Below are positions 1 to 64,000 of a stretch of DNA of 64,000 bases, piece after piece. The position numbers and the translations under genes are program-made. The stretch covers positions 6,784,001-6,848,000 of the forward strand of contig OZ244561.1 in NCBI GenBank assembly GCA_965217585.1. Direction: 5' to 3'. This stretch comes from Candidatus Latescibacterota bacterium. Its GTDB lineage: Bacteria > Latescibacterota > UBA2968 > UBA8231. The notes under the pieces are model-generated. The model was not told the origin of the DNA, did not search any database, and saw only the letters and a list, made by a program, of their open reading frames with translations. The number at the start of each line of letters is the position of its first letter. Position 1 is the stretch's first letter.

Positions 1-1415
1 ACCCCGCCGCGCCGACTGTCGTACCCGCCGCCGTAGCGCGGCCCCATGCGGAAGAGTTCCCCACCCACTTCCCAGCGACCGACGTCCTTGAGCGCGTTGA
101 CGTACCACGCGACCGCCCGCCGTTGGTCGCGCTGGCCGCGCAGCACCGGGAAGCTGCGGTAGAGCAGGTTGCGCTGGTATTCGGCGCGCACCTTCAAGCC
201 GACAAACGTGGCCTCCGCGTCAAAGCCGAAAATCGTCTGGCCGGTGGAAAAGCCATGCTCAAATTCCACGGCCCGCCGATTGGAAAAATCCCGCACCTCG
301 CCCGTCGCCCGCGCCCGCGTCTCAAAGGGTGTGTTGCGCGGCGTGAACTGATTGCGCAGCGCGTCGAAAAAGGGGTGCTGTTGCGCCACCTCAATGCGGT
401 AATCGTTGGCCACCAGCGCCCGCACCCGCGCCCGGCGCGGCGCGAAATCCTCTGGTACCACAAACAGGTATTCCACCGCCTCCTCGCCGCGCACCTCCCG
501 GAAGCCATCGCCGCGCCGCCCGCCCAACACTTGCGGTTGCAAACCCGGCGCAAAGTGGTCGTCGGCCGGGTCGCTGCTGATTGTCACCTCTCCCTCCGGC
601 CCTTCCCCTTCCAACTCAAGGACAATGTCGTACACAATGGCCCCGGCCTCATCGCTTTGCGGCGAGTCGTCGCGCACGCGCACGGTAATCTCGCTCGGCG
701 GCTGCATCGCCGGATAAGGGATACCACCGCTCAAAAAGCCGCCGGAGCTGCCCCGAGCCGTGTTGGCCTGATGTTGGTTGACAAAGGTCGTGCCAAAGCG
801 TAGCACATCGCCCAGCCGGGTCTGCCAGTGGCCGGCGATATTGTACACCGGGTTTTCCTCTGTCCGCTCCAAGTAGTCAATGAGCGATCCCCGTCCTTGG
901 GCCACCGGATCGGAAAAGCTGTTGAGCGTGGGGAACAGCGAAGAGTCAAAGCCGCGCGTGGTCAGCAAGGTGATCTTGTTAGCCGGAAAGATCACATCCC
1001 AGCGCAAGCCATTAAAGCCGGCCTGCCGCAACGTCAACGGCGTAAACTCCGTGCGCACCTCGTCGCCCACGGTCAAAGACCAGTGCCACGGGCCGTAGCT
1101 GTCGTGGGCGACGATCAGGTTGTTGAGCGAGCGGTAGAGCCGGTCCTTGCGGATGCGGCTGCCGCCAGGACGCTGCTCATCCAATTCATAGACGAGGAAG
1201 CCCTCGGCGAGGAAGCGGCCGAGAAAGTCGTAGCGCGGGGCCAAGCGGATCTCGCGGCGATAGGGCCGGTACAGATCTTCGCCGTAATTGGTGTACGCGC
1301 TCAGGGGCGGGCGGCGCAAAAAGTGACGCGAGGGTTGGGCGTCGGGCAGATCGGCCGCTAGCGGATGCCCGGACAACAGCAAGGCGAGCAAAAGAATCCA
1401 GCATCGGATGTTCAT
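1..1415 (-). CDS. Exported hypothetical protein, 3' end runs off window
   Basis: ATG at 1415 with GGAGA RBS. Manual translation begins MNIRCWILLLALLLSGHPLAAD (signal peptide) and later reads TVGDEVRTEFTPLTLRQAGFNGLRWD. Its absence from the ORF track is consistent with a frame open to the window edge. Confidence 0.8.
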   Translation of the reverse strand, partial: MNIRCWILLLALLLSGHPLAADLPDAQPSRHFLRRPPLSAYTNYGEDLYRPYRREIRLAPRYDFLGRFLAEGFLVYELDEQRPGGSRIRKDRLYRSLNNLIVAHDSYGPWHWSLTVGDEVRTEFTPLTLRQAGFNGLRWDVIFPANKITLLTTRGFDSSLFPTLNSFSDPVAQGRGSLIDYLERTEENPVYNIAGHWQTRLGDVLRFGTTFVNQHQANTARGSSGGFLSGGIPYPAMQPPSEITVRVRDDSPQSDEAGAIVYDIVLELEGEGPEGEVTISSDPADDHFAPGLQPQVLGGRRGDGFREVRGEEAVEYLFVVPEDFAPRRARVRALVANDYRIEVAQQHPFFDALRNQFTPRNTPFETRARATGEVRDFSNRRAVEFEHGFSTGQTIFGFDAEATFVGLKVRAEYQRNLLYRSFPVLRGQRDQRRAVAWYVNALKDVGRWEVGGELFRMGPRYGGGYDSRRGG

Positions 1416-1427
1416 AAGAATCTCCTT

Positions 1428-1457
1428 CGTAGGGGCGACCGGCCGGTCGCCCCTACG
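1428..1457. repeat. GTAG-type REP-like perfect palindrome
   Basis: CGTAGGGGCGACCGG|CCGGTCGCCCCTACG, a perfect 30-bp inverted repeat between two genes; the GTAG-flanked GC stem resembles RAYT-associated REP elements. Confidence 0.7.
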
Positions 1458-1460
1458 GCA

Positions 1461-3568: not shown

Positions 3569-4774
3569 TTACATTCGGCTGCTCGTCCTCAGTAGCTTTT
3601 CTACGAACTCAACCTTGTCGTCTAGCTGGAGTTCGCGGTATAGTTCCAGTGCTTGCCGCCACTGAAGTAAGGCATCAAAAGGAGCCTGATTCGATTCATA
3701 GACCCTTCCCAAGCTAACTCTAACGTCGGCTACGGCCTCCAAGTCCGACACTTTCTCAAACAGTTGCACCGCCTGCCGATACGCCTCCTCAGCCGCCTTA
3801 AAGTTTTCAACGTCCATATAGACATTGCCCAAAAGAGCTGCTTGTATCCCCCCGCTTTTGTTGTCCCCGATCTCGCCAAACAGTCCTCTAGCCTGCTGGA
3901 ACAACGCCGCAGCTTCTCGCGTGTCGCCTTTCTCCCCGAGCACCTGCCCCAGACCGCTCGTGGTGCGGGCTTCAAACAGTCTATTGCCCAATTTTTGTTG
4001 GGTGGCCAACGTCCGACGGTACATTTCTTCTGCCTCATCAAATCGACCCGCCTGTCTATATACGCCTCCCAAGACGCTGTAATGATGAGCCAACCCCTCG
4101 TCGCGCTGGAGTTGCTCTTCAGCCGCAATGCCTTTTTTGAGGATGGCTTCGGCCTCGGCTAAACGATTCTGTTCGAGATAGGCCATCCCCAGGCCCTGAT
4201 AGTGGCCGGAAATACCCGGCATATCGCCGAGTTCTTGGCACACGTTCAGTCCCTGCTGGAAGTAAGCTTCGGCCTCCTCTGGTTTGTTCTGCTGGAGTGC
4301 CAACTGGCCCAAGTTGCCGCATTCTTCGGCCCAATAGGCTCTATTTCCCAACGCCTCGTGGAGTTGCTGAGCGCGCATGTGGAGTTCTTGCGCCTCTGCG
4401 ACTTTTCCTTGGAGATGGGCGACAAAGCCTCTGTTGCTATAGCTGACGGCCAGACGCTCCTCATCGCGGCGATCCCTATTGATCTCAAAGGCTTTATTGA
4501 GATAGTCAACTGCCTCATCCATCTGCCCCATGACTTGGTACATAAGTCCCAAGCCGCTACACGCATCGGCTTCCATCTCCCAATCCTGCCACTGCCGTGC
4601 TTTCGCAAGGGCTCGTTGATACAGGACTTCAGCCTTGTGGAGTTCACCTTGTTCCTTGTAATAGCGGCCCAAAAGGAGACAAGCCTTCGCTTGGGTGCGT
4701 ACATCGCGATTTTGTGCGACCCGCGCCCGCTGTATCTCTATGTCTCGTTCGGGAATTAACGGAATGATTTCCAT
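3569..4774 (-). CDS. Tetratricopeptide repeat protein
   Basis: 401 aa of ~40-aa TPR units (LG..Y...G...EA...Y..AL); no signal peptide. Confidence 0.92.
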   Translation of the reverse strand: MEIIPLIPERDIEIQRARVAQNRDVRTQAKACLLLGRYYKEQGELHKAEVLYQRALAKARQWQDWEMEADACSGLGLMYQVMGQMDEAVDYLNKAFEINRDRRDEERLAVSYSNRGFVAHLQGKVAEAQELHMRAQQLHEALGNRAYWAEECGNLGQLALQQNKPEEAEAYFQQGLNVCQELGDMPGISGHYQGLGMAYLEQNRLAEAEAILKKGIAAEEQLQRDEGLAHHYSVLGGVYRQAGRFDEAEEMYRRTLATQQKLGNRLFEARTTSGLGQVLGEKGDTREAAALFQQARGLFGEIGDNKSGGIQAALLGNVYMDVENFKAAEEAYRQAVQLFEKVSDLEAVADVRVSLGRVYESNQAPFDALLQWRQALELYRELQLDDKVEFVEKLLRTSSRM

Positions 4775-4820
4775 ACCTCGCAGTGCCCTCCTCAGTTATA
4801 GTATCACGACAAAACATCTC

Positions 4821-6134
4821 TCAGTCCGCATCGACTAATTGCCGTGCCAATGATCCCTCGCGCGTCAACGCATACACCACGAGATTCACGCCGAGGTCAT
4901 AGACCGGCAACTCATCCGCCCCCGTGACAAAACGACCGCCGATAAAGCTCTCGCGGATCCGCTCGGCCTCGCCGGCGAACAGGTCCGCGTAGTTCTTTTG
5001 TGAGTAAACCCCCACGATGCGGCCATCCACCTCAATGCCCTCCAAGTAATTGGGCGACAATTCAAAGCGATACTCACTATGCCAAAACCAGATGTCCCAG
5101 AAGCCGCGCGGCAGAGAGTCCACGTCGTAGAAGCAATGGTAGAGCGGGTGCTCGGGCGGCAACCGCACAAAAGACCAATCTTTGTGTTCGGCGTAGTCAA
5201 TCTGCTGAAAGGCTTGGCGAATGAAATCGCGCAACGCCGGCAGGTCGTGCTGATAGCTGCCAGCGAGAGAGACAGGTTGGGAGATAATATCCGCATAGAG
5301 GAACCCACCCGAGATTAGATAACGGCCCAGATTTTTGGCTTCGACTTGGGTGAAGGAGACTTCGCCCCGAACCGTCAGCAGTAGAAACGGCACCTGCATC
5401 AGCAGCGGGTCATCTAAGGCGACGCCGTCGAGTACTTCGGTATGCACGCCGGTGCGCTCGCTCATTTTGTCGGCTAGGTTCTGCAGCATGCGCCGCTCGG
5501 AAATGCTGCGCGACCACCCCCCGCTGCGCTCCGAACGCGAGCTGGCGTCGGCGCGTTCGAGTGCTTCGCTGTGGATGCCCGATAAGTAGAGAAAACCCTT
5601 GAGTTTGCGCCGGTCTTTTGGATCAACCACTACCATCGCCCGGTGCCGACCCGTATCCATCGCCTCTACATCCATCAGTTCCAAGGACAAGTCAATCTCG
5701 TCAGCCCCCTGCCGCGTTCCTTGCAACGCCCCAGCGCGCAGTTGCGGCCCAATGTGCCGAGCGGGGAAATCCGGCACTGGCAGCACCAGTCGATCCGGCA
5801 GTGCCGCCGTCGGCAGCCGCAGAGCCGATGACTTGAACACCGGCAACGGACGCGACGCCGAGGGGGCCGGCCGCACGGCAGCCACCGGGGCAGCTTGAAG
5901 GGCGGGACGGCGCACCAATGGGCGTTGCATGGGCCGTTGGCGGCGGGTGAGGGTGCGCTGCGGCGGCGGACGCTTGGTAAACTTGAGCATGATCGGCGGC
6001 AGCACGGGGTATTGCGTAACCTGCTCGCGGTGCGTGATGCCGAAAATCACCAGCAGATGCAAGGCCAGCGACAACACCAAGCAGCTTTGCAGCTTTCTAT
6101 TCTTTCGGAACGGGACTTTCCACGGCCGTTTCAT
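4821..6134 (-). CDS. DUF4159 domain protein with N-terminal membrane anchor and Pro-rich linker
   Basis: TM segment CLVLSLALHLLVIFG and Pro/Arg-rich stalk; DUF4159-like motifs PFLLLT, NLGRYLISGGFLYAD, HPLYHCFYD, YLEGIEVDGR, LGVNLVVYALT; start placed at MKRPWK by paralog comparison. Confidence 0.85.
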   Translation of the reverse strand: MKRPWKVPFRKNRKLQSCLVLSLALHLLVIFGITHREQVTQYPVLPPIMLKFTKRPPPQRTLTRRQRPMQRPLVRRPALQAAPVAAVRPAPSASRPLPVFKSSALRLPTAALPDRLVLPVPDFPARHIGPQLRAGALQGTRQGADEIDLSLELMDVEAMDTGRHRAMVVVDPKDRRKLKGFLYLSGIHSEALERADASSRSERSGGWSRSISERRMLQNLADKMSERTGVHTEVLDGVALDDPLLMQVPFLLLTVRGEVSFTQVEAKNLGRYLISGGFLYADIISQPVSLAGSYQHDLPALRDFIRQAFQQIDYAEHKDWSFVRLPPEHPLYHCFYDVDSLPRGFWDIWFWHSEYRFELSPNYLEGIEVDGRIVGVYSQKNYADLFAGEAERIRESFIGGRFVTGADELPVYDLGVNLVVYALTREGSLARQLVDAD

Positions 6135-6162
6135 CTGCTTATGCCCTCTCTTTTCGGCAGAG

Positions 6163-7608
6163 TCACCCATTCAATCGTCCGTCTTTGTCTGGTTGGACAG
6201 AATCCGCCCGGTCAAAGACCACCTCACTGCCCTGTCGGACGTGTGGCAGACCGCGACTCAGGTTGCGGTGGAGCAAGGTGCGGAGCTCCTCGACGCCGAG
6301 GTTGGCCGGGGTGCTCAGGTTGAGGTAGTGGAGAAATTCGGGCTCGGGCATCCGATAGGCCGGCTCGATCTGGTGAGCGGAACGCTGGGCGACAAAAAAG
6401 GCGTCCACTGCATCGGCCGCGGCCTCGCCCCCATCCAATTCTCCAATATGTGCGGCAAGGGCTTGGCAACGCGGAGCGAATTCGTCGCTCCGAGATAGAA
6501 GATCGTCTATGGCCTCTAACAGGGGGTCCATCTGAAGAAACTCATCCCAGTTGAGCTTGCATCCCAAGCCAAGGTCGCGCACTCGGTTGAGGTGGTACTC
6601 CTCGTCCAACTTCTCGGGAGTGCCGATCACGGGCACACCTTGGCGCAAAGCATGGTAGATGGAACCAATGCCGCCCACACCAACGAAGAGAGCAGCACGT
6701 GCCAACACCCAAGCCGCCGGCACAAAGTCAACGACGCGGATATTGGGAGCCTCTATTTGTCCTGACCAACGACCGGCCGTGGTCACCAAGACGCGGTAGG
6801 GCTTGTTGGCCATGCGGTGTAGTGCCTCGTCGAGAAAGCCGAGATAAGCACCGGTGCTACCGCAATTGAAATAGACCAGCGGTAACGGATCGTCCCAATC
6901 GTCCAATTCCGCGATGGGGCGGGGCGGCGGCGACTCGATCAGTGGCCCCACATAGCAGTAGGAAGGAGTCTGTTCGCCCAGTGGATGGAATTGGGGCACA
7001 TCGGCGACCAAGTGGAGGGTATGGTGCGGCTTGAAGGTTGATATGTTGTCGCGAGCGTATTCGTCGAATGGCTCGGTGCCCAAGGAAAAGGTGGTGGGCA
7101 GGCGAATGGGAAACGGATAGTCCGGTTGGTTGTAGGCCGCCTCTATCAGGGCTATATCCATCCCCTCAAGAGAGGCGGTGAGCGGCAAGGTGGGCCGCAT
7201 GTCTGCCAGCGCGAGGGCGGGGCAAAGTTGCCGGATAAGGGTGCGTTCGGCTTGCACACAACGATCTATCCACTCCGCATTGTAATAGCCGTAGTCGCCG
7301 CGGGCCACGTACTCGTCCATGCGGCTTTGCGGCATGGTTTCTACTTCGTAAACCTGAAACCCTTCGGCGGCGATCCGGTCTGCGTGAGGCCCCACTCCCG
7401 CGAATTCCACGGGATACCCGCGCACTCGTAGAGCTCGTCCTACGACCAGAGGGCGGATGGTGTGGGCCAAGCTATAGCCGTGAAAAAAGATCAGTACTGG
7501 ACATTCGTGGCGCGGTAGGCCCTCAACCGTGCCGACCCGTTGCAGACGGACGCTCAAATGTTCCAAGCCAGCCGCTAGGTGTTGGCGCAATTTCTTCAGC
7601 ATGTCCAC
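6163..7608 (-). CDS. GT-B fold glycosyltransferase (GT1/MGT-like); C-terminus possibly truncated or fused
   Basis: N-terminal LAHTIRP; C-terminal PLVYFNCGS, NIRVVDFVP, FVGVGGIGSIYHALRQGVPVI nucleotide-sugar binding signature. Confidence 0.85.
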   Translation of the reverse strand: MDMLKKLRQHLAAGLEHLSVRLQRVGTVEGLPRHECPVLIFFHGYSLAHTIRPLVVGRALRVRGYPVEFAGVGPHADRIAAEGFQVYEVETMPQSRMDEYVARGDYGYYNAEWIDRCVQAERTLIRQLCPALALADMRPTLPLTASLEGMDIALIEAAYNQPDYPFPIRLPTTFSLGTEPFDEYARDNISTFKPHHTLHLVADVPQFHPLGEQTPSYCYVGPLIESPPPRPIAELDDWDDPLPLVYFNCGSTGAYLGFLDEALHRMANKPYRVLVTTAGRWSGQIEAPNIRVVDFVPAAWVLARAALFVGVGGIGSIYHALRQGVPVIGTPEKLDEEYHLNRVRDLGLGCKLNWDEFLQMDPLLEAIDDLLSRSDEFAPRCQALAAHIGELDGGEAAADAVDAFFVAQRSAHQIEPAYRMPEPEFLHYLNLSTPANLGVEELRTLLHRNLSRGLPHVRQGSEVVFDRADSVQPDKDGRLNG

Positions 7609-7623
7609 TCCAAGCTCGTGCGT

Positions 7624-9816
7624 CTATTCGAGTTTGACCATCTTGCGGATGCGCGTCTGCTCGCCTTGGTGTAGCCGCACCAGATAGACCCCAGCGGCGA
7701 CGGATTGCCCCTGTGCATCCCGACCATCCCAAGCCAGTCGGTGTTCGCCCGCCGCCAAGGGGCCATTCCACACTTGATGCACTGGCTGCCCCAAGACGTT
7801 GTAGATCGTTAAATCCACATCGCCAGCACCAGCCACCACCGATACGGGGATGGTCGTGGCCGGATTGAACGGGTTGGGATAGTTGGCACCAAGGACAAAG
7901 GCTGAGGGCGTGGTCGCCGTCTCGGCGGCGATAGCGGTAGCGGCTGGTACGCCTTGGTTGAGAAAGACGAAGGCCCCGCCATCGTCACCTTCCACACTCT
8001 GCCCCAACACCACCAAATCGGTCGCCCCATCGCCGTTGACATCGCCCGCGAGCACTTGATCGCCCATGCCCGGCAGGGGGTAGCGCCCTTCGACGACGGG
8101 CACCCCATCGCGCTGACCGACCAAGACGATCAGTGCCGGACCCGTCGCCGGGTTGATATCGACCACGGCCAAGTCCTGCAGACCATCGCCGGTCAGGTCA
8201 CTGGCAACGACCCCACCACCACCAGAATACGGATTCGACACGAGCACCTGCGGACCGAGCAGGGTGTGGCGTTCCACCTCGCCCGAGGCGTCCACCCGCC
8301 ACAGCACCAAACCGTGGTAGGTGGTGCGAAAATCAAAGTCGAAGAATAGATCGCGCTCGGACGTCCCAACCAACTCCACCGCCCCATCCCCATCCAAGTC
8401 GGTGAGCAGGCGCAGGTCACAGAGATTGACCTCGGCGTCAAAAAACAGCGGCGGTGGCTGGCTGGCCGCCCACGGCTGGGTCAGACGCCAAGCCCCCTGC
8501 TTGCACGATCGGGTCCACAACACGCGCACGGGCTCGCCCTCCGGTTGCCCTGCCAGCAGCCAAGGAAAGAGCTCTTCTTCGGTGTCGAGGTCAAACCGAT
8601 CGCTGTGGGCAAACCCAGCCGCGCCGTCATTGACCCACATAGTCACGTTGGACCATCGGTCGTCGAGGTCCTCGACGACCACCAGGTCCACATCGCCATC
8701 GCCGTCGCCATCGACTAGGCCACCGAACGAGACGTCGGATAGCTGCAGGATGGTTTCAAAGCCATTCTCGCCTCGGTTGTGCCACAATTCGAGGGCCAGA
8801 CCTTCACGAAAGGCCAGATCAAGCAGCCCATCCCCGTCCAAATCGCCCCCATCAAGCTCCCGCAACCTGCTTTCTGATAAAAGCACCTGTCGGGTGGGAA
8901 TCAAGCCGCCCAAACCGTCGCTGGACGCTACCGTCCAGCCCGATTGGCCCGTCCTCTCAAACGTCTCTTCGGTCACTTTGACGGTCGTGAAGTATAGCCA
9001 GACCACCACCAGATCGGCATCCCCATCGCCGTCCACATCGCCCAAAACACCTTGCGATAGTCCCTCACCGATACCCCGGCCCAGCACAGAAAAACGCGGG
9101 GCAGCGAACAACGCCCCGGGCAACCCGGCCGCGGCGTGTTCCCGAGGCTGCAATTCCCCCAGCAGCAACTCTTCGGCCCCCTCCAGTTGAATCCAATCCA
9201 CTTCGACAAAGGCCGGATGATCGGCCGGACTCTGTGGGTTTGAGTTTAACACGAGCTTGAGTTGCAAGTGGAAGAGGGTGTCTTGCCAAACGAGCGCGGT
9301 ATCCGCCCAGATGGTCGCAATCGGCTCTTGTCGTCTCGCTTCCAAACCGGCTTCCAAGGCGCGTATATCTATGGTGATGTTTTCCCATTCGATGGGATAG
9401 TATTGATAACGGCCCGTATAAAGCCCCGACAGGTCGGGCATTGCGCTTGGGTCCGCTTCCTGCTTGCGGCGTCTGGACTCGACATTGGACCAGTGCATCA
9501 GGAGGGTTCCCCCGGTAGGGCGATCATGGATGATGCGCAGCCGGAGGGTGACCCGGTCGAACAGGGCCGAGTCTTCCCCAATCAGCGGCGAGAGCAAGTT
9601 AATGGCCGGTCGTTGCGCGTTCGGCACCGGCGCAATGCGCCAGACGCCGTCTTCTACTTCGCTGTACACCGCGGTGGGAGTACCTCCACTGAGACTGCCT
9701 AAGTCGCTCTCGTGGGCGGTCCAGCCCCACGTGGTGCCCTCGTCAAAATCCCACGTTAAAGCCAAGGCTCCCAGCGGAGCCGACAACAATCCTATTGTAA
9801 TGAGCAAGCAGCGCAT
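7624..9816 (-). CDS. Secreted FG-GAP/VCBS repeat protein, CBM-like N-terminus, FlgD-Ig/T9SS-like CTD (KMVKLE class)
   Basis: Signal peptide; WDFDEGTTWGW...EVDWIQL domain; multiple GDxDGDGxxDL repeats; LGANYPNPFNP...WDGRD...GVY...RKMVKLE. Confidence 0.9.
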   Translation of the reverse strand: MRCLLITIGLLSAPLGALALTWDFDEGTTWGWTAHESDLGSLSGGTPTAVYSEVEDGVWRIAPVPNAQRPAINLLSPLIGEDSALFDRVTLRLRIIHDRPTGGTLLMHWSNVESRRRKQEADPSAMPDLSGLYTGRYQYYPIEWENITIDIRALEAGLEARRQEPIATIWADTALVWQDTLFHLQLKLVLNSNPQSPADHPAFVEVDWIQLEGAEELLLGELQPREHAAAGLPGALFAAPRFSVLGRGIGEGLSQGVLGDVDGDGDADLVVVWLYFTTVKVTEETFERTGQSGWTVASSDGLGGLIPTRQVLLSESRLRELDGGDLDGDGLLDLAFREGLALELWHNRGENGFETILQLSDVSFGGLVDGDGDGDVDLVVVEDLDDRWSNVTMWVNDGAAGFAHSDRFDLDTEEELFPWLLAGQPEGEPVRVLWTRSCKQGAWRLTQPWAASQPPPLFFDAEVNLCDLRLLTDLDGDGAVELVGTSERDLFFDFDFRTTYHGLVLWRVDASGEVERHTLLGPQVLVSNPYSGGGGVVASDLTGDGLQDLAVVDINPATGPALIVLVGQRDGVPVVEGRYPLPGMGDQVLAGDVNGDGATDLVVLGQSVEGDDGGAFVFLNQGVPAATAIAAETATTPSAFVLGANYPNPFNPATTIPVSVVAGAGDVDLTIYNVLGQPVHQVWNGPLAAGEHRLAWDGRDAQGQSVAAGVYLVRLHQGEQTRIRKMVKLE

Positions 9817-29778: not shown

Positions 29779-29782
29779 AGCC

Positions 29783-54389: not shown

Positions 54390-54437
54390 AACATGCCTCC
54401 TTGCATAAAGGCTATGAATAAGATGGTTAAAGGTATG

Positions 54438-55370
54438 TCATGGGACTGAAAGCAGCGATTTGATATGTCCCCACGACTGGGTTTCGACGCTCGTCGCAGC
54501 CGGGGTCGTCGGCTGCCAAGAGGGTTCGCGTCCACCTAAGCCGTTGGTCAATTCGACCAAGTTGCTCCCGTCTATATCAACAACCCAAACCTCCTTGTCC
54601 CCTTGCTCGCTAGCGGCAGAGAAGGCGATTCTCATGCTGTCAGGCGACCAAGTAGTTGGGTCAGCTATTCTCTCCCAGCCGGGTTCAAGTTCAGCTTGTT
54701 GATAGGGTAGATCGGGAAGGAGAATCTCCGAGAAATCTTCTATCTGTTTAGAAGGCTGCGGCCCCTTACTGGGAGCGAAGCTAACTAGGCGTAGGTAGGC
54801 ATTGCCCTCGTCGTCCTGCAACACGACTTCTGCTCGTTTGGTTCCGTCTGGAGAACGACCGCGATTATCGAGGAAACGGCGGACTATCCCAGCCCCTTCC
54901 TTCCAATCCACGGGTGAGGAGCCACTGCCGTCCAACTCCACCACGAACAGTTGTTCATTGCGGGACCTCCTATAGTAGTAAATGCGACTCCCGTCTTCAG
55001 CCCAAAAGAACTCCCCATGTCCGGGATCTACTAGATATCCCACTTGTTGCGGATTGCCGCCGTCGGCGTCCATCACCCAGATGGCACCTTGGGAATAATC
55101 GACCCAGATGACACCATCGGAATCGAAATAATCGTCAAAGGCGAGATAGGCGATCTTCGTGCCATCCGGTGACCAAGCCAAGTTAACGCAATGCCGATGC
55201 CGGCCTTGGGTTAAGTTGACGGGGGCGCTCCCATCCGCATTCATAATCCAAACGTCGGAAGGTCTCTCACGATAGGAGAGAAATGCTATTTTACCGTCGG
55301 CTTGCCCCCAGCCAGCGACGGCTAGCCCCAGCGTTGCCAAGTAGGCGATCAGTAGGGATCGATAGCTCAT
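54438..55370 (-). CDS. Secreted TolB-like/PD40 protein with SVETQSWGHIK tail
   Basis: Same motifs; start MSYRSLL after AAGGAG. Confidence 0.88.
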   Translation of the reverse strand: MSYRSLLIAYLATLGLAVAGWGQADGKIAFLSYRERPSDVWIMNADGSAPVNLTQGRHRHCVNLAWSPDGTKIAYLAFDDYFDSDGVIWVDYSQGAIWVMDADGGNPQQVGYLVDPGHGEFFWAEDGSRIYYYRRSRNEQLFVVELDGSGSSPVDWKEGAGIVRRFLDNRGRSPDGTKRAEVVLQDDEGNAYLRLVSFAPSKGPQPSKQIEDFSEILLPDLPYQQAELEPGWERIADPTTWSPDSMRIAFSAASEQGDKEVWVVDIDGSNLVELTNGLGGREPSWQPTTPAATSVETQSWGHIKSLLSVP

Positions 55371-55435
55371 AACGTAGCTCCTTTCATATATGGATTCATC
55401 GGTCTTTCCTTTTAACAACTAAAAAACCTCTCTCC

Positions 55436-57417
55436 TTATGGGAGCCTGGTCGTCTTTTTCGCTTCCACCTGTCCGGCCACCTCGACCCGATAGATATACA
55501 CTCCGGCGGCTACTGCCTTCCCCGCCGCGTCGCGGCCATTCCACACAAACCGATGGCTACCCGCCTGAAGCGGCCCCTGCCACAACTGCCGCACCCGACG
55601 ACCCAACACGTCGTAGAGTGTCAAGGAGACCTGCTTTTGGTCTGTCGCCAAATCGAGGGGAATCACCATTGTGGGATTGAACGGATTGGGATAGCTGTCG
55701 CCGAGCCGATACTGGGCCGGTCGAACTGTCGTCGGCGTCTGCACTGCCGTCGGCTGCTCGCTCAGCGAACTCTTGAGCACATACACCCCGCCCAAGATCG
55801 GATCTAACACGACCAAGTCGAGATCGCCGTCGCTATCCATATCCCCGGAGAGTACATGTGTACCACTTCCTGGCAGACGATGCCGCTCCCCTTGTTGGGT
55901 AGGATGGACACCCCCACCCCACTCGACGAACACCCCAAAGCCCGAAGCGCGATCTCCGCCAATAAACACCCAGTCCTCAACCCCATCGGCGTTTAGATCA
56001 CGCACCATCACCGACGAGCGGAGGAACAGCCGATCATCATATAATACCTCCGCGACTTCTAGGCCGCCTCCGGCGCTCTTCTTCAAGACCAGCCCCCTGC
56101 GATCTTCAAATGGATCGCGTGTGAACTCTGTGACGAAATCCATCTGCCCATCGCCGTCAAAATCTACCATTTCTTCGCCTCCCACAATCAGCGTGTTCGG
56201 CCACAATATGTCTAGTAATGACCCTTCGCCGATAAGGTCGTCGATCTCCACCTCCTCGTAAGTCCATACGCCCTGTTCTATATACCATACTTCGCCTTCT
56301 CCAGAAGCAATATCTTCTACATATAATTCACCCCGGCCGTCGTCATTCCAATCAACCACAGCCACGAGCCAGCTATCCTCGATCTGTACCAACACCTCGA
56401 CTTGGAGTTCCGGCCCGATAGACCAAACTTCTATCATCTCCTCCTCCTCCCCATCCCAGCGGGGATATCTCACGATTTCGTCTCGGCCATCGCCGGTCAA
56501 ATCAGCACCTACCACACCTAAGTATGACCTATGGACCACTGTTAAGAAGTCGCCTGTGGCCTCTACCTCTATAGGCCCCAGTTCCAAGGCACCTTGTCCG
56601 TCATTGAGTGCCATCAGCCATCCAGCTTTATGCTCAGACGTCCCCCGGGTATAATCTGTGTGATAAAAGAAGGCGAAAAGGTCTAGGTCGCCATCTCCAT
56701 CCAAATCCATCAAGGCACCAGCCACATCACTCGCCAATTCTCCCCCGATACCCCGCGCAATCGGATAGAAAACCGGCGGGGCAAAAAGTCCGGCCCGATC
56801 AAAGCGAAAATACTCTACGGGTGGCGGAGGCAGTTCTCCCTGTGCGAGCTCTTCCTCACCGGTCACTCAATCCAGTCGATCTCAAGCCATTCGACCATCT
56901 CTGCCGACGGGCCTCTTGAAAAACTGAGCTGAATATCTTTTAACCAGCCCTCCCAATTGTCTTGACCCGCCAACGAGAACATTACTTCCTGCCACTCGGG
57001 GGAGATATCGACTGTTTCTCCGGAGGAGATTGACCGGTCGCTAGGTAGCTGTTCCGAATCCCCCATGTTGTGCTCGTTAGTCCACTCCATCCAAAAACCA
57101 CCATGAACGACCGTAGAGACGATGCGGAACCGGATGCGGACTTGGTCGAACAGACCCGAATCGTACCCAATGGTAGGAGAAACCAATTCGACACTCGGCC
57201 AAGGGTAGAAACTCTTGGTGACGGAGGGCGCGACCGCAATCCTCCACACGCCCGCTTCGACCTCCCCTGGAAACAGGTGGGTTTCACGCGTACCACCCGA
57301 CAAAAAAGCTTCTCTGGCAGACCACCCTTGCGTCGTCCCGTCGTCGAACTCCCAAGTGATCGCCGCGACAGGACCGCTCCATAGTATCACGCATACAACA
57401 ACGGAGAACTTCGACAT
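55436..57417 (-). pseudogene. FG-GAP/CTD gene split by a 1-nt deletion at ~56864
   Basis: Paralogs read GAG-TTG-ACC (E-L-T); here GAG-TGA-CC gives a stop exactly after IDWIE; downstream ORF 55436-56866 holds propeller and CTD. Confidence 0.8.
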
Positions 57418-57471
57418 GACATCCCCTCCATAGAGAACATTCCGGTAAGACTGCGTAGTTGGCCCCACCCC

Positions 57472-57574
57472 TCAAGGCAACTTGGTCGTCTTCTTGGTTT
57501 CCGCTCGCCCATCTACCTCAAAGCGATAGAGATATACTCCGGCTACCACCCCCTTGCCGACCTCGTCGCAGCCA
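57472..57574 (-). pseudogene. Degenerate remnant of a CTD 3' end
   Basis: Resembles GRDEVGKGVxxGVYLYRxEVDGRAETKKTTKLP* directly after the TolB-like gene stop. Confidence 0.72.
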
Positions 57575-58534
57575 TTAACGAGTACCTGTTGAAAGCAGCG
57601 CTTTGATCTGTCCCCACGACTGAACCTCGACGCTCGTCGCAGTAGCAGAAGGGGAAACTGGTTGCCAAGCGGGATTAGCTCCGTCCAAACCGTTGGTCAG
57701 ATTGACCAAGTTGCTCCCGTCTATATCAACAACCCAAACTCCCATGTACCCTTGCTCGTTATTGGCAGTGAAGGCGATTCTCATGCTGTCAGGCGACCAA
57801 GTAGGGTGGAGATCCACTTTAGACCAGCCGGGTTCAAGTTCAGCTTGTTGATAGGGTAGATCGGGAAGGGGAACATCCCATAAATCTTCTATCTGGTCAG
57901 AAGGCTGTGGCCCCTCAGTGGGAGCGAAGATAACTAGGCGTAGGTAGGCATTGCCCTCGTCGTCCTGCAACACGACACTTGCTCGTTTGGTTCCGTCTGG
58001 AGAGCGACCGCGATCGAGGAAACGGCGGACTATCCCAGCCGCCTCCCTCCAGTCCACGGGTGAAGAGCCACTGCCGTCCAGTGCCACAACGAACAGTTCA
58101 TAGCGGGGATACTGCACGTAGTAGTAAATGCTACTTCCGTCTTCAGCCCAAAAAAGCTCCTCAGATCTGGGCGGTGTTAGAGATGCCACAGATCTGGGCG
58201 GTGTTAGAGATGCCACTGGTTGCGGATTGCCGCCATCGGCGTCCATCACCCAGATATCGGCAACGGAATAATCGACCCAGGCGGAATCGAGATCGACACT
58301 AAAGGCGAAATAGGCGATCTTCGTGCCATCCGGAGACCAAACCAAGTCAACGCAATAAGCATGCCGGCCTTGGGTTAAGTTGACGGGGTCGCCCCCATCC
58401 GCATTCATAATCCACACGTCATTGTTCCCCTCGCGCCACGAGGTAAATGCGATTTTACCGTCGGTTTGCCCCCAGCTAGCGATGGCTAGCCCCAGCGTTG
58501 CCAAGCAGACGAGCAGTAGGGAGCGATAGTTCAT
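57575..58534 (-). CDS. Secreted TolB-like/PD40 protein with SVEVQSWGQIK tail; paralog of 54438-55370
   Basis: Same motifs; first gene after promoter 4. Confidence 0.88.
   Translation of the reverse strand: MNYRSLLLVCLATLGLAIASWGQTDGKIAFTSWREGNNDVWIMNADGGDPVNLTQGRHAYCVDLVWSPDGTKIAYFAFSVDLDSAWVDYSVADIWVMDADGGNPQPVASLTPPRSVASLTPPRSEELFWAEDGSSIYYYVQYPRYELFVVALDGSGSSPVDWREAAGIVRRFLDRGRSPDGTKRASVVLQDDEGNAYLRLVIFAPTEGPQPSDQIEDLWDVPLPDLPYQQAELEPGWSKVDLHPTWSPDSMRIAFTANNEQGYMGVWVVDIDGSNLVNLTNGLDGANPAWQPVSPSATATSVEVQSWGQIKALLSTGTR
58162..58216. repeat. Exact 27-bp in-frame tandem duplication (VASLTPPRS x2)
   Basis: CAGATCTGGGCGGTGTTAGAGATGCCA twice. Confidence 0.9.
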
Positions 58535-58577: not shown

Positions 58578-58594
58578 TGCACATTTCGTGCCAA
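58578..58594 (-). promoter_or_regulatory. Sigma54 (-24/-12) promoter 4
   Basis: Minus strand TTGGCACG-AAAT-GTGCA. Confidence 0.88.
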
Positions 58595-58614
58595 AAACTC
58601 GAGCACCGACAAAA

Positions 58615-58641
58615 AATCCTTTAGGAATACCCTAAAGGATT
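58615..58641. promoter_or_regulatory. Conserved palindromic site, copy 4
   Basis: AATCCTTTAGG-AATAC-CCTAAAGGATT. Confidence 0.8.
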
Positions 58642-58715
58642 GAAAAATATAATACTTGAAATATGAAACGAGTCTTTTTACGAAGTGCAGCCTCAGCCGT
58701 CGGCGCAAGGTTTTA

Positions 58716-58750
58716 CACGATTTTTCGTGCAATCTGAACGATTTTTCGTG
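58716..58750. promoter_or_regulatory. Putative UAS: two phased (C/A)ACG-N6-CGTG dyads
   Basis: CACGATTTTTCGTG and AACGATTTTTCGTG, 21 bp apart. Confidence 0.8.
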
Positions 58751-58758: not shown

Positions 58759-61700
58759 CTACGACTTCTTCGGTCGGCGCAACCCGTACTTCCTCATGCG
58801 ATAGCGCAGCTTCTCCGGGTTCATGCCCAACAAATGCGCCGCACCCCGCTCGCCATAGATCATCCAGTTGGTCGCCTGCAGCGCCTCCACAAGCTGCTGC
58901 TTTTCGTCCAAGCCTGCGCCGACCACTACCGCTGGTGCCACCCCAGCCCCAGCCCGCCGACCAACCGACGGCAGCAGCAAATCACCAACGCGTATTACCC
59001 CGTCCTCACACAACAAAACCGCCCTATTGATCAGGTGCTCCAACTCGCGCACATTCCCCGGCCAAGCATACGCCTGCAAGTGCCCGATCACCCCCTCGTC
59101 TATCGTCGGCACCGGCCGCCGCAGGTGCTGAGCATATCGCTCCGCAAAATGCGCCGCCAAAGCCGGGATATCCTCTTGCCGCTGCCGCAGCGGCGGAAGC
59201 TCTAACGTAAAAACGCTCAGGCGGTAGAATAAGTCTTCGCGGAACGTGCCTTCCTCGATGGCCTGCCGCAAGTCGCGGTTAGTCGCCGCAATGACCCGCA
59301 CATCCACGCTTACAGAATGCTCGCCGCCGACGCGGGTCAGGGCATTCTCCTCTAAGATGTGCAGCAGCACCCGCTGAGACTCCAACGGCAAATCGCCGAT
59401 TTCGTCCAAAAAGAGCGTGCCGCCATCGGCCAGTTCAAAGCGCCCAAGCTGACGGCCCGCCGCCCCGGTAAAGGCCCCTTTCTCATGGCCGAATAACTCG
59501 CTTTCGACCAACCCGGCCGGCAGCGCCCCGCAATTGACGCGGATAAAGGGCCGCTTGCGGCGAGTGCTTGTTTCGTGGATGGTCTGCGCCAGTAAGCCCT
59601 TGCCCGTGCCGGTCTCGCCCAGCACGAGCACGGTCATCGCGGTCTCGGCGACGCGCACGGTCTGTTCCAGCACTTGGCGCATAGCCCAGCTCTCGCTATG
59701 CACGACGTGGTCAGTGGCTCGCAGTGCGTTTTCAAGGGCGTGGATGCGTTCGGTTTTGGCATCAGGTAAAACATGGACCTCCAAACAGGATACCTCGGAC
59801 AGCAGACCATCGCGGTCCATCGTCCGCACCTCAAAGCGGTACTCGCCTACTGGCAAGGCGCTGTACGCGACCGCATCGGCGACCGTAAACGAACTCCACT
59901 GTTCCGTGGGATCGTGGCCTAAAAGGCGATGACTGTAGCGCATTTGCCTCGCGCCAGTGCGAAAGCTGATGCCTTGAAAGTGAATGCGGATTTCAGGCGT
60001 GCTCTCTGGGCAGGATACCGCTTCGGGCGCGGCCAAGCGGGTACCGGCCATAACCTCGCGGATGACCAAGCGCGGCGGGGTGTGTCCCGGCTGGTAGGCG
60101 ACCAGCCCCGCCCGCGTCCCAAACCACATCCGACCGCGACGGTCGCACAGGACGGCTTCGACCTTATTTTCGAGGGCAGATGGCCCCAAGCGGATGCTTT
60201 GGAAGGTCTCGCCGTCGTAGCGGAGGATCCCGCCGCCGCTGGTGCCTATCCAGATATTGCCCTGCGGGTCGGAGGTCAGCGCCAAGATGCCATTAGCCGA
60301 CAGCCCAAACTGTTCAGCGGTAAAGTGGCGCACCTCCCGCGACGAGAGATCAAGGGCGAACAGCCCCTTGGCCGTACCCACCCATAGGGTGTTTTGGTGC
60401 TCCCACAAAACGTTGACATAGGCGATAGACTCTGCTTCGGCCATATCCGCCGGGTGGAAACGACCATTCTCGTAACAGTAGAGTGCCGGCACTCTTCCGT
60501 AGAAACCAACCCAGAATACTCCGTTTTGGTCTTGCAGCAGGGCATGGCACTCGTCGATTAACCATTCGTCGAAGGGGGTGAAGCAATTTTCCTCTATCCA
60601 GCCAAAGCCAAAGCAGCCCCGGAAAATGCCGACCCATATACGCCCTTGCCCATCCTCGCACAGCCCGGAGACTTCTCCGAAGTGGGCCTCTTCGGCCACA
60701 GAGATCGCTTGCGGCGTTTGGCCCTCCCACCTATACACTTGGCCAGTGTCTCCACCGCTCCAAACCTGTCCCTGACCATCCACCACCATCGCCGAGACGA
60801 CTTCACGAGTTCCTACCGGGAGAATTTGGCCCTCTTCCATGCAGGCCATGCCCCCCATCGTGCCAATCCACATCCGACCCTCATGGTCTTCTCCCAAACG
60901 ACGAATCTCGTGGTCGGGTAGGCCGTCGGCTTCGGTGTAGCGGCGGATGCTGGCTAGGTCGCAAAAAATCAGCCCGCCGCCCCAAAGCCCGATCCAGATA
61001 TTGCCCTCGCGGTCCTCGTAGCTCAGGCGCGTATCCGAAAAGTCAATGTCCGGCAAGGAGGCGGAAAGGTGGTACCACTCCTGCCCGTCGTAGCAGATCA
61101 CGCCCCGGTGGGTCAGCCAGAGCCAACCCCTCCCGTCAACTCGAATGTGCCGCGTCCCATTTTGTGCAGCCCTCTCAGCTCTATTGCCCACGTTAATGAG
61201 TGCGAACTGCTCGTTATGTGGATTGTAGCGGCCGATCAAGGCTTCGCTACCCGTATAATGGAAGGCGGTCCACAGATGGCCGGAGGGATCTTGAGCAAAT
61301 TTCCAAGGATCTTGGATTGCTCGGTCGCTGACACCCATGCGCCGTCCATCCAAGCTGAGGACACCTTGGTCCCAAGTCGCCAGCCAAGTGGTACCAGCCG
61401 CGTCGGTGACCATATCGTACACTCGCCCCAACCGTTGGCCACCAACGTCGGTTATGCACTTCATGCAGCGGCCCTCGGCAAACCACGCCACGCCTGCGCC
61501 GGTCAACGCCAAAATCGAGCCATCCGGCTGAGCTTGCAGACCCACAATCTCATTGGAAGGCAAGCCGTGCTCGGTGGTGTACACCTGAAAGCCGCGTCCG
61601 TCGTACGCGGCGATCCCACCGCCGAACGTGCCGAACAAAAGCCGCCCGTCTGCTTCCTCGGCAATGGCCATGACCGTCAGATTGGGCAGACCGTCCTTGA

Positions 61701-61872
61701 GCCCAAACGTATCAAACCGGGCGCTGTCGAACCGGCTGACGCCGCCGTCGGCCGTGGCAATCCAGAGAAAGCCCTGGCGATCTTGGTAGATGTCCTCCAC
61801 GTGCATCCCAGCCAGCCCATCAAAAACCGTGTACTGGCTGCTCAACACATGCTCAAAGGAGATGTCGCTCAT
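58759..61872 (-). CDS. Sigma54-dependent EBP 4 (propeller + Y_Y_Y-like + AAA+ + HTH)
   Basis: Same architecture and motifs, including GAFTGA. Confidence 0.95.
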   Translation of the reverse strand: MSDISFEHVLSSQYTVFDGLAGMHVEDIYQDRQGFLWIATADGGVSRFDSARFDTFGLKDGLPNLTVMAIAEEADGRLLFGTFGGGIAAYDGRGFQVYTTEHGLPSNEIVGLQAQPDGSILALTGAGVAWFAEGRCMKCITDVGGQRLGRVYDMVTDAAGTTWLATWDQGVLSLDGRRMGVSDRAIQDPWKFAQDPSGHLWTAFHYTGSEALIGRYNPHNEQFALINVGNRAERAAQNGTRHIRVDGRGWLWLTHRGVICYDGQEWYHLSASLPDIDFSDTRLSYEDREGNIWIGLWGGGLIFCDLASIRRYTEADGLPDHEIRRLGEDHEGRMWIGTMGGMACMEEGQILPVGTREVVSAMVVDGQGQVWSGGDTGQVYRWEGQTPQAISVAEEAHFGEVSGLCEDGQGRIWVGIFRGCFGFGWIEENCFTPFDEWLIDECHALLQDQNGVFWVGFYGRVPALYCYENGRFHPADMAEAESIAYVNVLWEHQNTLWVGTAKGLFALDLSSREVRHFTAEQFGLSANGILALTSDPQGNIWIGTSGGGILRYDGETFQSIRLGPSALENKVEAVLCDRRGRMWFGTRAGLVAYQPGHTPPRLVIREVMAGTRLAAPEAVSCPESTPEIRIHFQGISFRTGARQMRYSHRLLGHDPTEQWSSFTVADAVAYSALPVGEYRFEVRTMDRDGLLSEVSCLEVHVLPDAKTERIHALENALRATDHVVHSESWAMRQVLEQTVRVAETAMTVLVLGETGTGKGLLAQTIHETSTRRKRPFIRVNCGALPAGLVESELFGHEKGAFTGAAGRQLGRFELADGGTLFLDEIGDLPLESQRVLLHILEENALTRVGGEHSVSVDVRVIAATNRDLRQAIEEGTFREDLFYRLSVFTLELPPLRQRQEDIPALAAHFAERYAQHLRRPVPTIDEGVIGHLQAYAWPGNVRELEHLINRAVLLCEDGVIRVGDLLLPSVGRRAGAGVAPAVVVGAGLDEKQQLVEALQATNWMIYGERGAAHLLGMNPEKLRYRMRKYGLRRPKKS

Positions 61873-61946
61873 ACGCGTCCTTCCGACGATTGGGAGGTCC
61901 CGGCCTTTAACACATGACCTACCCTAAGATACAACCGCCAATAAAA

Positions 61947-62084
61947 AATCCTTTAGGAGGACCCTAAAGGATTGAAAAACATAACACTCAAAATATGAGA
62001 TGATTCTTTTTACGATGCGCAGCTTCAGCCGCCAGCGCAAGGCTTGCCACGACTTTCCGTGTTGGCCGCCTACGACTTTTTCGG
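61947..62084. promoter_or_regulatory. Fifth regulatory cassette (palindrome + one CACG-N6-CGTG + EBP stop-codon-like remnant) lacking the sigma54 box
   Basis: AATCCTTTAGG-AGGAC-CCTAAAGGATT at 61947-61973; CACGACTTTCCGTG at 62048; tacgactttttcgg resembles the EBP 3' end; no TGGCAC box seen before EBP4. Confidence 0.75.
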
Positions 62085-62160: not shown

Positions 62161-62171
62161 ACGAGACACGA

Positions 62172-63155
62172 TTAACGGGCACCCGTTGAAAGCAGCGCTT
62201 TGATCCGTCCCCACGACTGGGACTCGACGCTCGTAGCAGTAGCTGAAGGGGAAACCGATTGCCAAACGGGATACTCTCCGCCCAAACCGTTGGTCAGATT
62301 GACCAAGTTGCTCCCGTCTATATCAACAGCCCAAATCTCCCCAGTGCCGGGGTAAAAGGAGAGAGAAGTGCCAGAACTGTTGAAAATGGTGTATGAAGTG
62401 AAAGCTACCTTCATGCTGTTGGGTGCCCAAGTAAGGGGAAAACCAGTAGAGGCCCAAGAATCGCCGACATCCCGATAAAAGAGATCGACGGGTTGGCCAG
62501 ACAGGAAAATGGCCGGGACCCTGTCTTCACCGATCACAGGGGGTTCTTCACTGATCATAATGAAGAGGGGTTGGCCATCTTCGTCACCAGCTTGACCATC
62601 TTCGTCACCATGTAGAAAGCCGACGTATGCTCGTTTGGTTCCGTCTGGAGAAAGATGGCGGTGGTCCCAGAAGCGGCGGAGTATCAAAGCCGCCTCCCTC
62701 CATTCCATACCTCTCCATTCCACAAGTGAGGATCCGCTGCCGTCCGGTGCCACGGCAAACATCTCAGAGCGATCCCACACAAAGTAGTAAATGCTTTGGC
62801 CGTCTTCAGACCAAAACAGGTCATCTGCGCTGTTAGGGCCTATTTTTTCAATATGGTCTGTTAGCTGCTTTCGATTGCGACCGTCGGCGTCTAGCACCCA
62901 GATATCCCTACCGGAATAATCGGCACCAACGTCGAGATAGGCTATCTTCGTGCCATCCGGGGACCAAACCGGGCTAGCGCAATGCTGTCCTTGGGTTAGG
63001 TTCACGGGGTCGCTCCCATCCGCATTCATAATCCACACGTCATTGTACCCCTCGCGATAGGAGAGAAATGCTATTTTACCATCGGCTTGCCCCCAGCCTG
63101 CAGCGGCCAACCCCAGCGTTGCCAAGCAGACGATCAGTAGGGATCGATAGTTCAT
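62172..63155 (-). CDS. Secreted TolB-like/PD40 protein with SVESQSWGRIK tail; paralog of 53388-54389
   Basis: Same motifs, highly similar sequence. Confidence 0.88.
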   Translation of the reverse strand: MNYRSLLIVCLATLGLAAAGWGQADGKIAFLSYREGYNDVWIMNADGSDPVNLTQGQHCASPVWSPDGTKIAYLDVGADYSGRDIWVLDADGRNRKQLTDHIEKIGPNSADDLFWSEDGQSIYYFVWDRSEMFAVAPDGSGSSLVEWRGMEWREAALILRRFWDHRHLSPDGTKRAYVGFLHGDEDGQAGDEDGQPLFIMISEEPPVIGEDRVPAIFLSGQPVDLFYRDVGDSWASTGFPLTWAPNSMKVAFTSYTIFNSSGTSLSFYPGTGEIWAVDIDGSNLVNLTNGLGGEYPVWQSVSPSATATSVESQSWGRIKALLSTGAR

Positions 63156-63288
63156 AACGTGGCTCCTTTCAGAAGGTTAGGAATGGGATAAAGCGTTGTA
63201 ATAACGCACTGTACAAAACAGACGAAATCGCGACCCACCTACAGCAATTTGATATCGCTCTTTTCCTTCTTTTTTACGGTCGGATCGG

Positions 63289-64000
63289 CTATTCGAGCTT
63301 GACCATTTTTCGGGTGCGTAGCTGCTCGCCCACGCGTAGCTGATACAAATAGGCTCCAGAAGCGACGGGTCGGCCCTGCCCGTCTCGGCCATCCCAAGTC
63401 AGCCGGTGTTCGCCCGCCGCCAACGGCCCCGACCACACTTGGCGCACAAGCTGTCCCAAGAGGTTGTAGATGGCTACATCCACAGCCTCGGCACCGTCAG
63501 GCACCGATAGGGGGATGGTCGTGGCCGGATTAAACGGATTGGGATAGTTCGCACCCAAGACAAAGTCCGACGGCGTAGCCTGCTCAATGGCGACGGCTGT
63601 GGGCGGACTGCTCTGGTTGATAAAGACGAAAGCCCCACCAGGACCGCCTTCCACATTCTGCCCCAACACGACCAGCTCGGCGGCCCCATCGCCGTTGAGG
63701 TCACCGGCGAGCACCTCGCTGCCTGTGCCCGGCAGCCGGTAGCGGCCTTCGAGGACGGGCACGCCATCGCGCTGGCCGATCAAGACGACCAAGGCCGGAC
63801 CCGTTTCCAAGTTGCCATCGACCAAGGCCACGTCCGGCAGACCATCGCCGTTGAGGTCGCTGACAAGAGGGCGACCTTGCACGTGTACCTGCGAGCCGAG
63901 CAGCGTGTGGCGTGCCACCGCGCCCGAGGGGTCCAGACGCCACAACGCCAAGCCGTGGTAGGTGTGTGCGGTTAGCTCGGTGATCCCAACTAAATCCACC
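63289..64000 (-). CDS. FG-GAP/VCBS protein with CTD (KMVKLE class), 5' end outside window
   Basis: SDLNGDGLPD, AGDLNGDG, LGANYPNPFNP...RKMVKLE. Confidence 0.88.
   Translation of the reverse strand, partial: VDLVGITELTAHTYHGLALWRLDPSGAVARHTLLGSQVHVQGRPLVSDLNGDGLPDVALVDGNLETGPALVVLIGQRDGVPVLEGRYRLPGTGSEVLAGDLNGDGAAELVVLGQNVEGGPGGAFVFINQSSPPTAVAIEQATPSDFVLGANYPNPFNPATTIPLSVPDGAEAVDVAIYNLLGQLVRQVWSGPLAAGEHRLTWDGRDGQGRPVASGAYLYQLRVGEQLRTRKMVKLE

Follow-up and report, generated by a model that had tools for sequence, protein, structure and literature searches.

The DNA analysed here, called the window below, is a stretch of 64,000 nt (contig positions 6784001-6848000, genome label G000:C1; coordinates refer to the window unless marked as genome positions) from a probable member of the Latescibacterota. 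It carries four paralogous activator genes, E1 to E4, each followed by a predicted sigma-54 promoter and a row of cargo genes whose products mostly have signal-like N-termini (Table 1). The activators are 1037-1047 aa long. Pfam, against which 35 window proteins were scanned, finds Reg_prop repeats, Y_Y_Y, Sigma54_activat (PF00158, about 231 bits) and the AAA lid in all four. The helix-turn-helix (HTH) domain HTH_8 gives matches close to or at the cut-off in three copies; the fourth, 13631-16774, has none listed at E<=0.001. Every copy retains intact Walker A/B and GAFTGA motifs, and the genome encodes rpoN. The four proteins share 82-90% identity. E1, E2 and E4 are 82-89% identical to E3 (49966-53091), which has further homologs elsewhere in the genome, two at about 63% and one at 32% identity.

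Behind each activator stop codon lie two to four dyads with a period of 19-21 nt, an A/T-rich stretch, a palindrome with 11-bp arms and then the element TTGGCACG-N4-NTGC, which places GG-N10-GC at -24/-12 in all four cassettes. Relative to the predicted starts, the proximal dyads span -148/-150 to -161/-163 and the palindromes -48/-49 to -74/-75. The dyads thus sit about 150-210 bp upstream, in the position and phasing of enhancers; their binding by the activators is suggested by covariation with the HTH, a signal inseparable from linkage. A first-pass annotation of this DNA had described four activators followed by dyads, palindrome and promoter, with the palindrome starting at -48/-49 and the first dyad at -148/-150, and this geometry holds. 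To its four cassettes we add a fifth palindrome upstream of E4, with one dyad and no sigma-54 site. A scan of the window for sigma-70 promoters gave no signal above chance.

The arrangement extends well beyond this genome, from which we moved outward to 80 additional homolog loci. Of 66 close homologs, 49 have a tight sigma-54 motif within 450 nt after the stop codon and 55 a loose one, where dinucleotide shuffles predict 0.2 and 1.3. Among 48 distant homologs the loose motif occurs in 25, against 1.3 expected, and the tight motif in 22. For comparison, the activators of the named genomes collected by a generic AAA motif, a set that held only non-propeller proteins, have the loose motif in 9 of 76 cases (2.1 expected) and the tight one in 6 of 76. 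These counts exclude loci with less than 450 nt of downstream DNA or containing N. The hairpin-plus-promoter pattern was found in 23 of 31 genomes of the genus, and in none with a reversed control. The expectation that the cassette would accompany homologous activators elsewhere is thus borne out, with 11 of the 66 close activators lacking the promoter motif, some by clean deletion of the cassette. Activator homologs are present in 33 of 41 genomes examined, the window genome included, and the close sensor family in 36 of 168 genomes of the phylum, all from the window's own family (six candidates scored per genome). The named homologs derive from metagenome-assembled genomes of Latescibacterota and Gemmatimonadota. 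The nearest Atlas cluster (70 members, mostly Latescibacterota) records the same domain architecture, and automatic annotation of the homologs already records the propeller/Y_Y_Y/AAA+ order.

An alignment-based structural model of E3 (predicted local distance difference test, pLDDT, 92) has 14 propeller blades, an Ig-like Y_Y_Y domain and a single short helix, then the AAA+ domain and a C-terminal domain that is helical, as expected for an HTH. Its top Foldseek matches are the periplasmic sensors BT4663, BT3049 and BT4673, followed by sigma-54 AAA+ domains. In none of 99 full-length homologs did we find a hydrophobic segment, in the linker or at the N-terminus, that could act as membrane helix or signal peptide; the sensor therefore most probably resides in the cytoplasm. 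The window activators have no Pfam match to a kinase, a receiver or an AraC output. Among 26 sequences at least 80% identical, the sensor varies mainly in loops on the entry face, in blades 3-5 and 8-10. For blades 4-6 and 9-11 (selected after inspecting entropy), the ratio of nonsynonymous to synonymous substitutions (dN/dS) is 0.39 in the entry-face loops but 0.14 in the bottom loops; the AAA+ domain has 0.08. The activators are therefore under purifying selection (dN/dS 0.08-0.39), and we suspect that distinct paralogs respond to distinct ligands.

One residue of the HTH, read in the motif LR-x-RM at 58 close loci, follows the outer base of the dyad. Serine pairs with TACG..CGTA dyads in 23 of 23 loci. 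Tyrosine pairs with CACG..CGTG (20 loci) or with AACG..CGTT (12 loci, the G-PEK sub-clade), that is in 32 of 33 typed loci, two more being untyped; the single exception, L019, typed TA by pattern, resembles the C/G type on inspection. Within the window, Ser/TACG applies to E1 and Tyr/CACG to E2, E3 and E4. On the sensor tree the HTH residue and the dyad type change 12 times each, and eight of nine independent pairs are concordant and none opposite (p 0.008). Part of this covariation is explained by block exchange. Loci L019 and L124 are 93-100% identical over the gene body, then 82% and 49% identical at the 3' end, and Ser/Tyr changes number 13 on the AAA tree and six on the HTH tree. As judged from such alignments and trees, the HTH and promoter recombine against the sensor. 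The same two loci led us to reject a quorum-like pairing of sensor and cognate peptide, since their sensors are near-identical and the cores of their Cys-peptides unrelated.

The palindrome had been listed as one part of a three-part cis cassette, and its hairpin, T run and pairing pattern are better explained by a terminator combined with a site of integration host factor (IHF) type than by a third regulatory dyad. The four hairpins, each with a T run behind it, have folding energies of -14 to -16 kcal/mol (z -3.2 to -5.6). The sense strand has a terminator-like hairpin at 48 of 57 close loci (two antisense, 2.3 in shuffled sequence) and at 17 of 27 distant ones (four antisense, 0.3 shuffled), where the stem sequences are unrelated. 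Over 22 distinct arm pairs, the 33 changed pair positions comprise nine compensatory changes, 15 G-U pairs on the sense strand, five A-C and four other, so that sense-strand pairing is retained at 24 of 33; the loop is 4-6 nt long. An IHF-type core, scored with a consensus that allowed up to two mismatches in A/T-rich DNA, is present at 52 of 57 close loci, 39-41 nt before TGGCA and overlapping the left arm of the hairpin. The distant loci have such a core in 19 of 27 cases, 28-31 nt before the promoter element, one helical turn closer and apart from the hairpin. IHF-bent sigma-54 promoters are familiar from NifA/nifH and XylR/Pu. The best reading of the palindrome is, on this sequence evidence, a terminator of the activator mRNA fused with an IHF-type bend site. 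In a distant family (L026-L030, L159-L185) an apparent proximal enhancer dyad lies inside the long loop of the terminator hairpin.

Cassettes also occur without an activator. In 11 near-complete genomes (at most three contigs each), 32 of 66 cassettes stand directly behind a listed activator match and 34 do not, a count in which 14 weak activator matches are unlisted. Certain genomes have 7-9 cassettes but three listed activators. In the window genome a cassette directly follows each of the six full-length close activators, further copies stand behind activator remnants, and orphan promoters at genome positions 3655300 and 3659862 carry CACG and TACG dyads. The modules can hardly be called self-contained, as had been proposed: E2, E3 and E4 share one HTH and dyad type, and cross-activation among them is therefore expected.

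The cargo lists drawn up earlier were broadly right, with corrections. The first gene is broken behind promoters 1, 2 and 3 (behind promoter 1 it is a truncated activator), and the glycosyltransferase and TPR proteins have no signal-like N-terminus. Some ten relics or split genes are scattered over the window, next to about 15 intact cargo genes. [quoted passage not shown] Genome-wide, FG-GAP family matches of more than 175 aa are confined to the 30 kb downstream of cassettes. By crude hydropathy, 41 of 50 close loci and 16 of 26 distant ones have a first cargo gene whose product looks secreted; cargo at distant loci includes cadherin/fn3, WD40, GPP34, a PL8 lyase and a TonB-dependent receptor. 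The C-terminal tails are a separate matter. Genome-wide, 65 open reading frames (ORFs) have a WGxIK-type tail and 132 a FlgD/T9SS-type tail; given that only 10 and 27 of them are downstream of cassettes, these tails are general export marks in this genome.

That the cassette is portable and its cargo changes, as first suggested, agrees with our comparison of sensors at least 88% identical: the first cargo family is shared in 36 pairs and different in 30, of which 16 involve an unclassified gene. The further idea of an inducible repertoire fares worse, because no generator of diversity is shown and the pattern is one of duplication, recombination and decay. No reverse transcriptase or site-specific recombinase was found among the 35 window proteins scanned, in which serine recombinases were not searched for. 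The nearest matches to diversifying enzymes are the sole RVT_1 of the genome, about 1.8 Mb away, and a PF00589 protein about 0.37 Mb away. Cargo turnover fits birth and death by homologous recombination, as far as the sequences tell, and not programmed diversification.

Table 1. Activators, cassettes and cargo of the window, and miniprotein genes at other loci (positions prefixed by the locus).
Feature	Position	Strand	Remarks
Activator E4	58759..61872	-	double 7-blade propeller, Y_Y_Y, AAA+, HTH; Tyr type
Activator E3	49966..53091	-	Tyr type; AlphaFold model pLDDT 92
Activator E2	24527..27664	-	Tyr type; lacks the upstream box of E3/E4; may be transcribed from the array above
Activator E1	13631..16774	-	Ser type, separate dyad type; likewise lacks the box
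Truncated fifth activator	12509..13168	-	only N-terminal blades of the propeller left; heads the row behind promoter 1
Derived cassette upstream of E4	61943..62061	-	one dyad (62048-62061), IHF core, palindrome/hairpin (61947-61973), no -24/-12 site
Putative enhancer of promoter 4	58716..58750	-	two CACG-type dyads, 21 nt apart
IHF-type core and hairpin, promoter 4	58611..58645	-	core 58633-58645; overlapping terminator hairpin 58615-58641 with T run
Sigma-54 promoter 4 (predicted)	58579..58594	-	predicted start 58567
Cargo 4	53388..58534	-	three TolB-like propeller proteins with WGxIK tail; FG-GAP/T9SS-tail gene split by frameshift (56863-57417, 55436-56866)
Putative enhancer of promoter 3	49903..49957	-	three CACG-type dyads
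IHF-type core and hairpin, promoter 3	49797..49832	-	terminator hairpin 49802-49828
Sigma-54 promoter 3 (predicted)	49765..49780	-	predicted start 49753
Cargo 3, intact	28130..49701	-	five FG-GAP/T9SS-tail, two TlpA-like CxxC, LRR with lipoprotein-like signal; also DUF4159
Cargo 3, broken	within 28130..49701	-	TlpA copies including the first gene; one FG-GAP
Putative enhancer of promoter 2	24436..24489	-	three dyads, mainly CACG type
IHF-type core and hairpin, promoter 2	24330..24365	-	terminator hairpin 24335-24361; one U-G pair
Sigma-54 promoter 2 (predicted)	24298..24313	-	predicted start 24286
Cargo 2	17232..24181	-	broken FG-GAP (first), intact FG-GAP/T9SS-tail, glycosyltransferase relic, DUF4159, Cys-rich with T9SS-type tail, DUF4159 relic
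Putative enhancer of promoter 1	13402..13478	-	four TACG-type dyads, 21-nt period
IHF-type core and hairpin, promoter 1	13298..13332	-	terminator hairpin 13303-13328
Sigma-54 promoter 1 (predicted)	13266..13281	-	predicted start 13254
Cargo 1	3569..12266	-	two FG-GAP/T9SS-tail, GT1-like glycosyltransferase (no signal), DUF4159, TPR (no signal)
Miniprotein gene	L013:831-1109	-	
Miniprotein gene	L014:687-965	-	
Miniprotein gene	L019:5021-5311	+	
Miniprotein gene	L019:5561-5839	+	
Miniprotein genes	L122, L123, L124, L125, L137		

We propose that the window is part of a lineage-expanded, multi-input sigma-54 regulon for T9SS-type surface proteins, and we put the probability of the whole mechanism at about 0.7. 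In this scenario, the ligand would be cytoplasmic, most likely a small molecule such as an imported sugar, and its binding to the propeller entry faces would release the AAA+ domain. Activator dimers on the dyads would assemble, IHF would bend the DNA near -70 and the sigma-54 holoenzyme would fire, with the hairpin halting activator mRNA before it runs into the cargo. The HTH residue would select one of three dyad types, so that several sensors may feed each promoter class, orphan cassettes included. Given that HTH, dyads and promoter lie within about 250-400 bp, homologous recombination could move them as a matched block onto other sensors and before other cargo. Duplication and deletion would make the cargo rows grow and decay; these rows hold T9SS-tailed FG-GAP proteins, TolB-like propellers, TlpA oxidoreductases and Cys-rich proteins.

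Several points weigh against this proposal. Its evidence comes from sequence and structural models. The HTH tree leaves one supported independent pair (five over all branches), so recognition and linkage are not separated, and the match between HTH and dyad may reflect physical linkage. Among distant homologs with serine, L021 and L022 have TACG-type dyads, but L024, L025, L154, L157 and L161 do not. The excess of G-U over A-C changes (15:5) could partly stem from IHF constraint on the left arm; the IHF consensus itself is tolerant, and the three IHF/HU-family (DNABII) genes of the genome may encode IHF or HU. The sugar ligand is suggested by fold likeness and by Atlas leads for the cargo N-domain that score below 0.9. 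Positive selection on the sensor was considered and rejected, because dN/dS stays below 1, and the blades compared were chosen with their entropy in view. Lastly, the tie between cassettes and cargo is partial for TolB-like proteins (7 of 11 downstream of cassettes) and TlpA-like proteins (9 of 18).

Other readings of the same data were considered. A daisy chain, in which each promoter drives its cargo, the next activator and then a terminator (E3/E4 to E2 to E1), could time or amplify expression, and is compatible with the proposed regulon; we hold it to be a tentative possibility. All genes lie on one strand, where the longest-stem matches of a simple terminator scan are mostly cassette hairpins. 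E3 and E4 are preceded by a box that is also found before 14 of 25 close activator genes (the derived cassette precedes it at E4, and it is conserved before many homologs), whereas E1 and E2 lack it and come directly after gene relics. An activator is also the first gene behind the cassette in five related loci, as it is, truncated, behind promoter 1. However, 22 kb separate promoter 3 from E2, nine further homologs lack the box as well, internal promoters or Rho-dependent stops would be beyond the reach of a simple scan, and the layout may be an accident of tandem duplication. The opposite design, a set of private circuits in which one sensor, one promoter and one cargo set move as a whole, would suit the cassettes directly behind all six close activators, the G-PEK/Tyr sub-clade with AACG dyads (same first cargo in 11 of 12 loci) and E1, which alone in the window has its own dyad type. 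We consider it quite unlikely, since E2, E3 and E4 have HTH and dyad type in common, about half of the cassettes counted above are not behind a listed activator, orphan promoters carry the CACG and TACG types, and sensors at least 88% identical so often head different cargo.

An operator for a dimeric repressor or co-activator could account for the strong conservation of the palindrome arms (209 of 242 pair cells unchanged), their fixed distance of 21-23 nt from the promoter and the copy upstream of E4, which has only a cargo gene end directly before it. Against this, the spacer varies between 4 and 6 nt, the T run is always on one side, and distant homologs have unrelated hairpins with T runs instead, some with 24-40-nt loops. 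A fully compensated copy without a promoter also stands just behind a housekeeping GTPase-like gene, presumably ObgE (genome 5573914-5573940). An operator is thus unlikely, and the terminator and bend site remains our preferred reading of the palindrome. Finally, the broken first genes, the relics and the clean cassette deletions could be read as signs of a recombination-prone accordion, for the most part in decay and hardly selected for any function. This we regard as very improbable given the purifying selection on the activators, the spacing and pairing conserved across 23 of 31 genomes, and the intact cargo genes.

The switch itself is of textbook design. Going by two regulon studies (Clostridiales, PMC6615313; Desulfovibrio, PMC4641369), the activator gene normally adjoins the sigma-54 target, and several enhancer sites are placed 100-250 bp upstream. 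In the genome studied here, a downstream sigma-54 motif accompanies 6 of 15 other activators as well. The first-pass description of a new system is therefore too strong. Like classical sigma-54 systems, the window activators combine an AAA+ domain bearing GAFTGA with a C-terminal HTH, dyads about 150-210 bp upstream, a -24/-12 promoter and a neighbouring target. Unlike them, they have a 700-residue double propeller/Y_Y_Y input, many near-identical paralogs with three dyad classes, a probable terminator that overlaps the putative bend site, and targets that are rows of paralogous secreted proteins instead of metabolic operons.

The sensor resembles those of the Bacteroides hybrid two-component systems BT4663, BT3049 and BT4673 (PDB 4A2L/4A2M, 3V9F, 3OTT/3VA6) in its two seven-bladed propellers and Y_Y_Y. 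BT4663 binds disaccharides on its propeller entry faces (PMC5121618), which is where the window family varies. In contrast to these systems, the window activators have no signal peptide, membrane helix, kinase or receiver, and an apparently cytoplasmic sensor drives an AAA+ domain. BguR (bioRxiv 10.64898/2026.01.10.698779) likewise joins propeller/Y_Y_Y straight to a DNA-binding output, with a site between the regulator and the first target gene, but it carries a signal peptide as well as a membrane helix, its HTH is of the GerE type, and neither AAA+ nor sigma-54 is involved. The LRR, TPR, WD40-like, cadherin and fn3 classes of cargo recall the eukaryote-like repeat proteins of sponge-associated Latescibacterota (PMC12993501). 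The main text of that paper does not contain 'sigma', 'FG-GAP' or 'secretion system' and describes no regulator; its sponge habitat is not established for the window genome. PMC12316311 makes no mention of Latescibacter or propeller.

A literature search, with supplements (e.g., of sigma-54 regulon surveys) and most subscription journals outside it, turned up no account of a propeller/Y_Y_Y sigma-54 activator free of membrane segments, or of its regulon. The activator family and its reshuffling appear undescribed. What emerges is a probable regulon of T9SS-type proteins and eukaryote-like repeat proteins, in an uncultured lineage for which we found no regulator described. An extracytoplasmic glycan-sensor fold has apparently been reused in the cytoplasm on an AAA+ activator, and a short three-class code from HTH to enhancer could yield orthogonal sigma-54 parts.

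A bolder interpretation, which we think doubtful, is a selected, recombination-driven switchboard. Here the linked HTH-enhancer-promoter block, with its one-residue code, would rewire cytoplasmic sensors that have diversifying ligand faces to exchangeable sets of secreted binding proteins and of disulfide-rich miniproteins, in part as a cascade. If so, host-associated Latescibacterota could alter their surface and secretome in response to host-derived molecules, and nature would hold a combinatorial library of sensors and outputs built from sigma-54 parts.

The miniproteins are secreted proteins of 90-97 aa with a conserved leader, a hypervariable core and mostly 8-10 cysteines, and are often encoded by the first gene behind a cassette. 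The two scanned, from L014 and L019, had no Pfam match. In the window, 17767-18603 combines the leader of this family with a T9SS-type tail. The TlpA-like cargo could fold such Cys-rich miniproteins.

The remaining observations concern single genes and short elements. The glycosyltransferase at 6163-7602, which lacks a signal peptide, is nearest to macrolide-type GT1 models, below the cut-off. A gene similar to it by eye, with no Pfam match, follows a short peptide behind the promoter in two distant loci (L021:2-502, L022:3-740). A small ORF of about 95-100 aa recurs between cargo genes (3115-3405, 36648-36956; relics at about 16980-17163 and 27870-28093); it has no Pfam match, and the label STAS was rejected because tblastn gave no match at these ORFs either. 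A short intergenic hairpin resembling repetitive extragenic palindromes occurs at 1429-1456, about 53364-53391 and about 62126-62158, with 83 pattern matches genome-wide, some double-counted across strands. DNA contigs from four public runs match unique pieces of the window, many joints being indistinguishable from paralog cross-mapping. The frameshift at 56864 that splits an FG-GAP gene looks polymorphic, since both the window form and a form with a one-base insertion, from a paralog or a strain, are present in these contigs.

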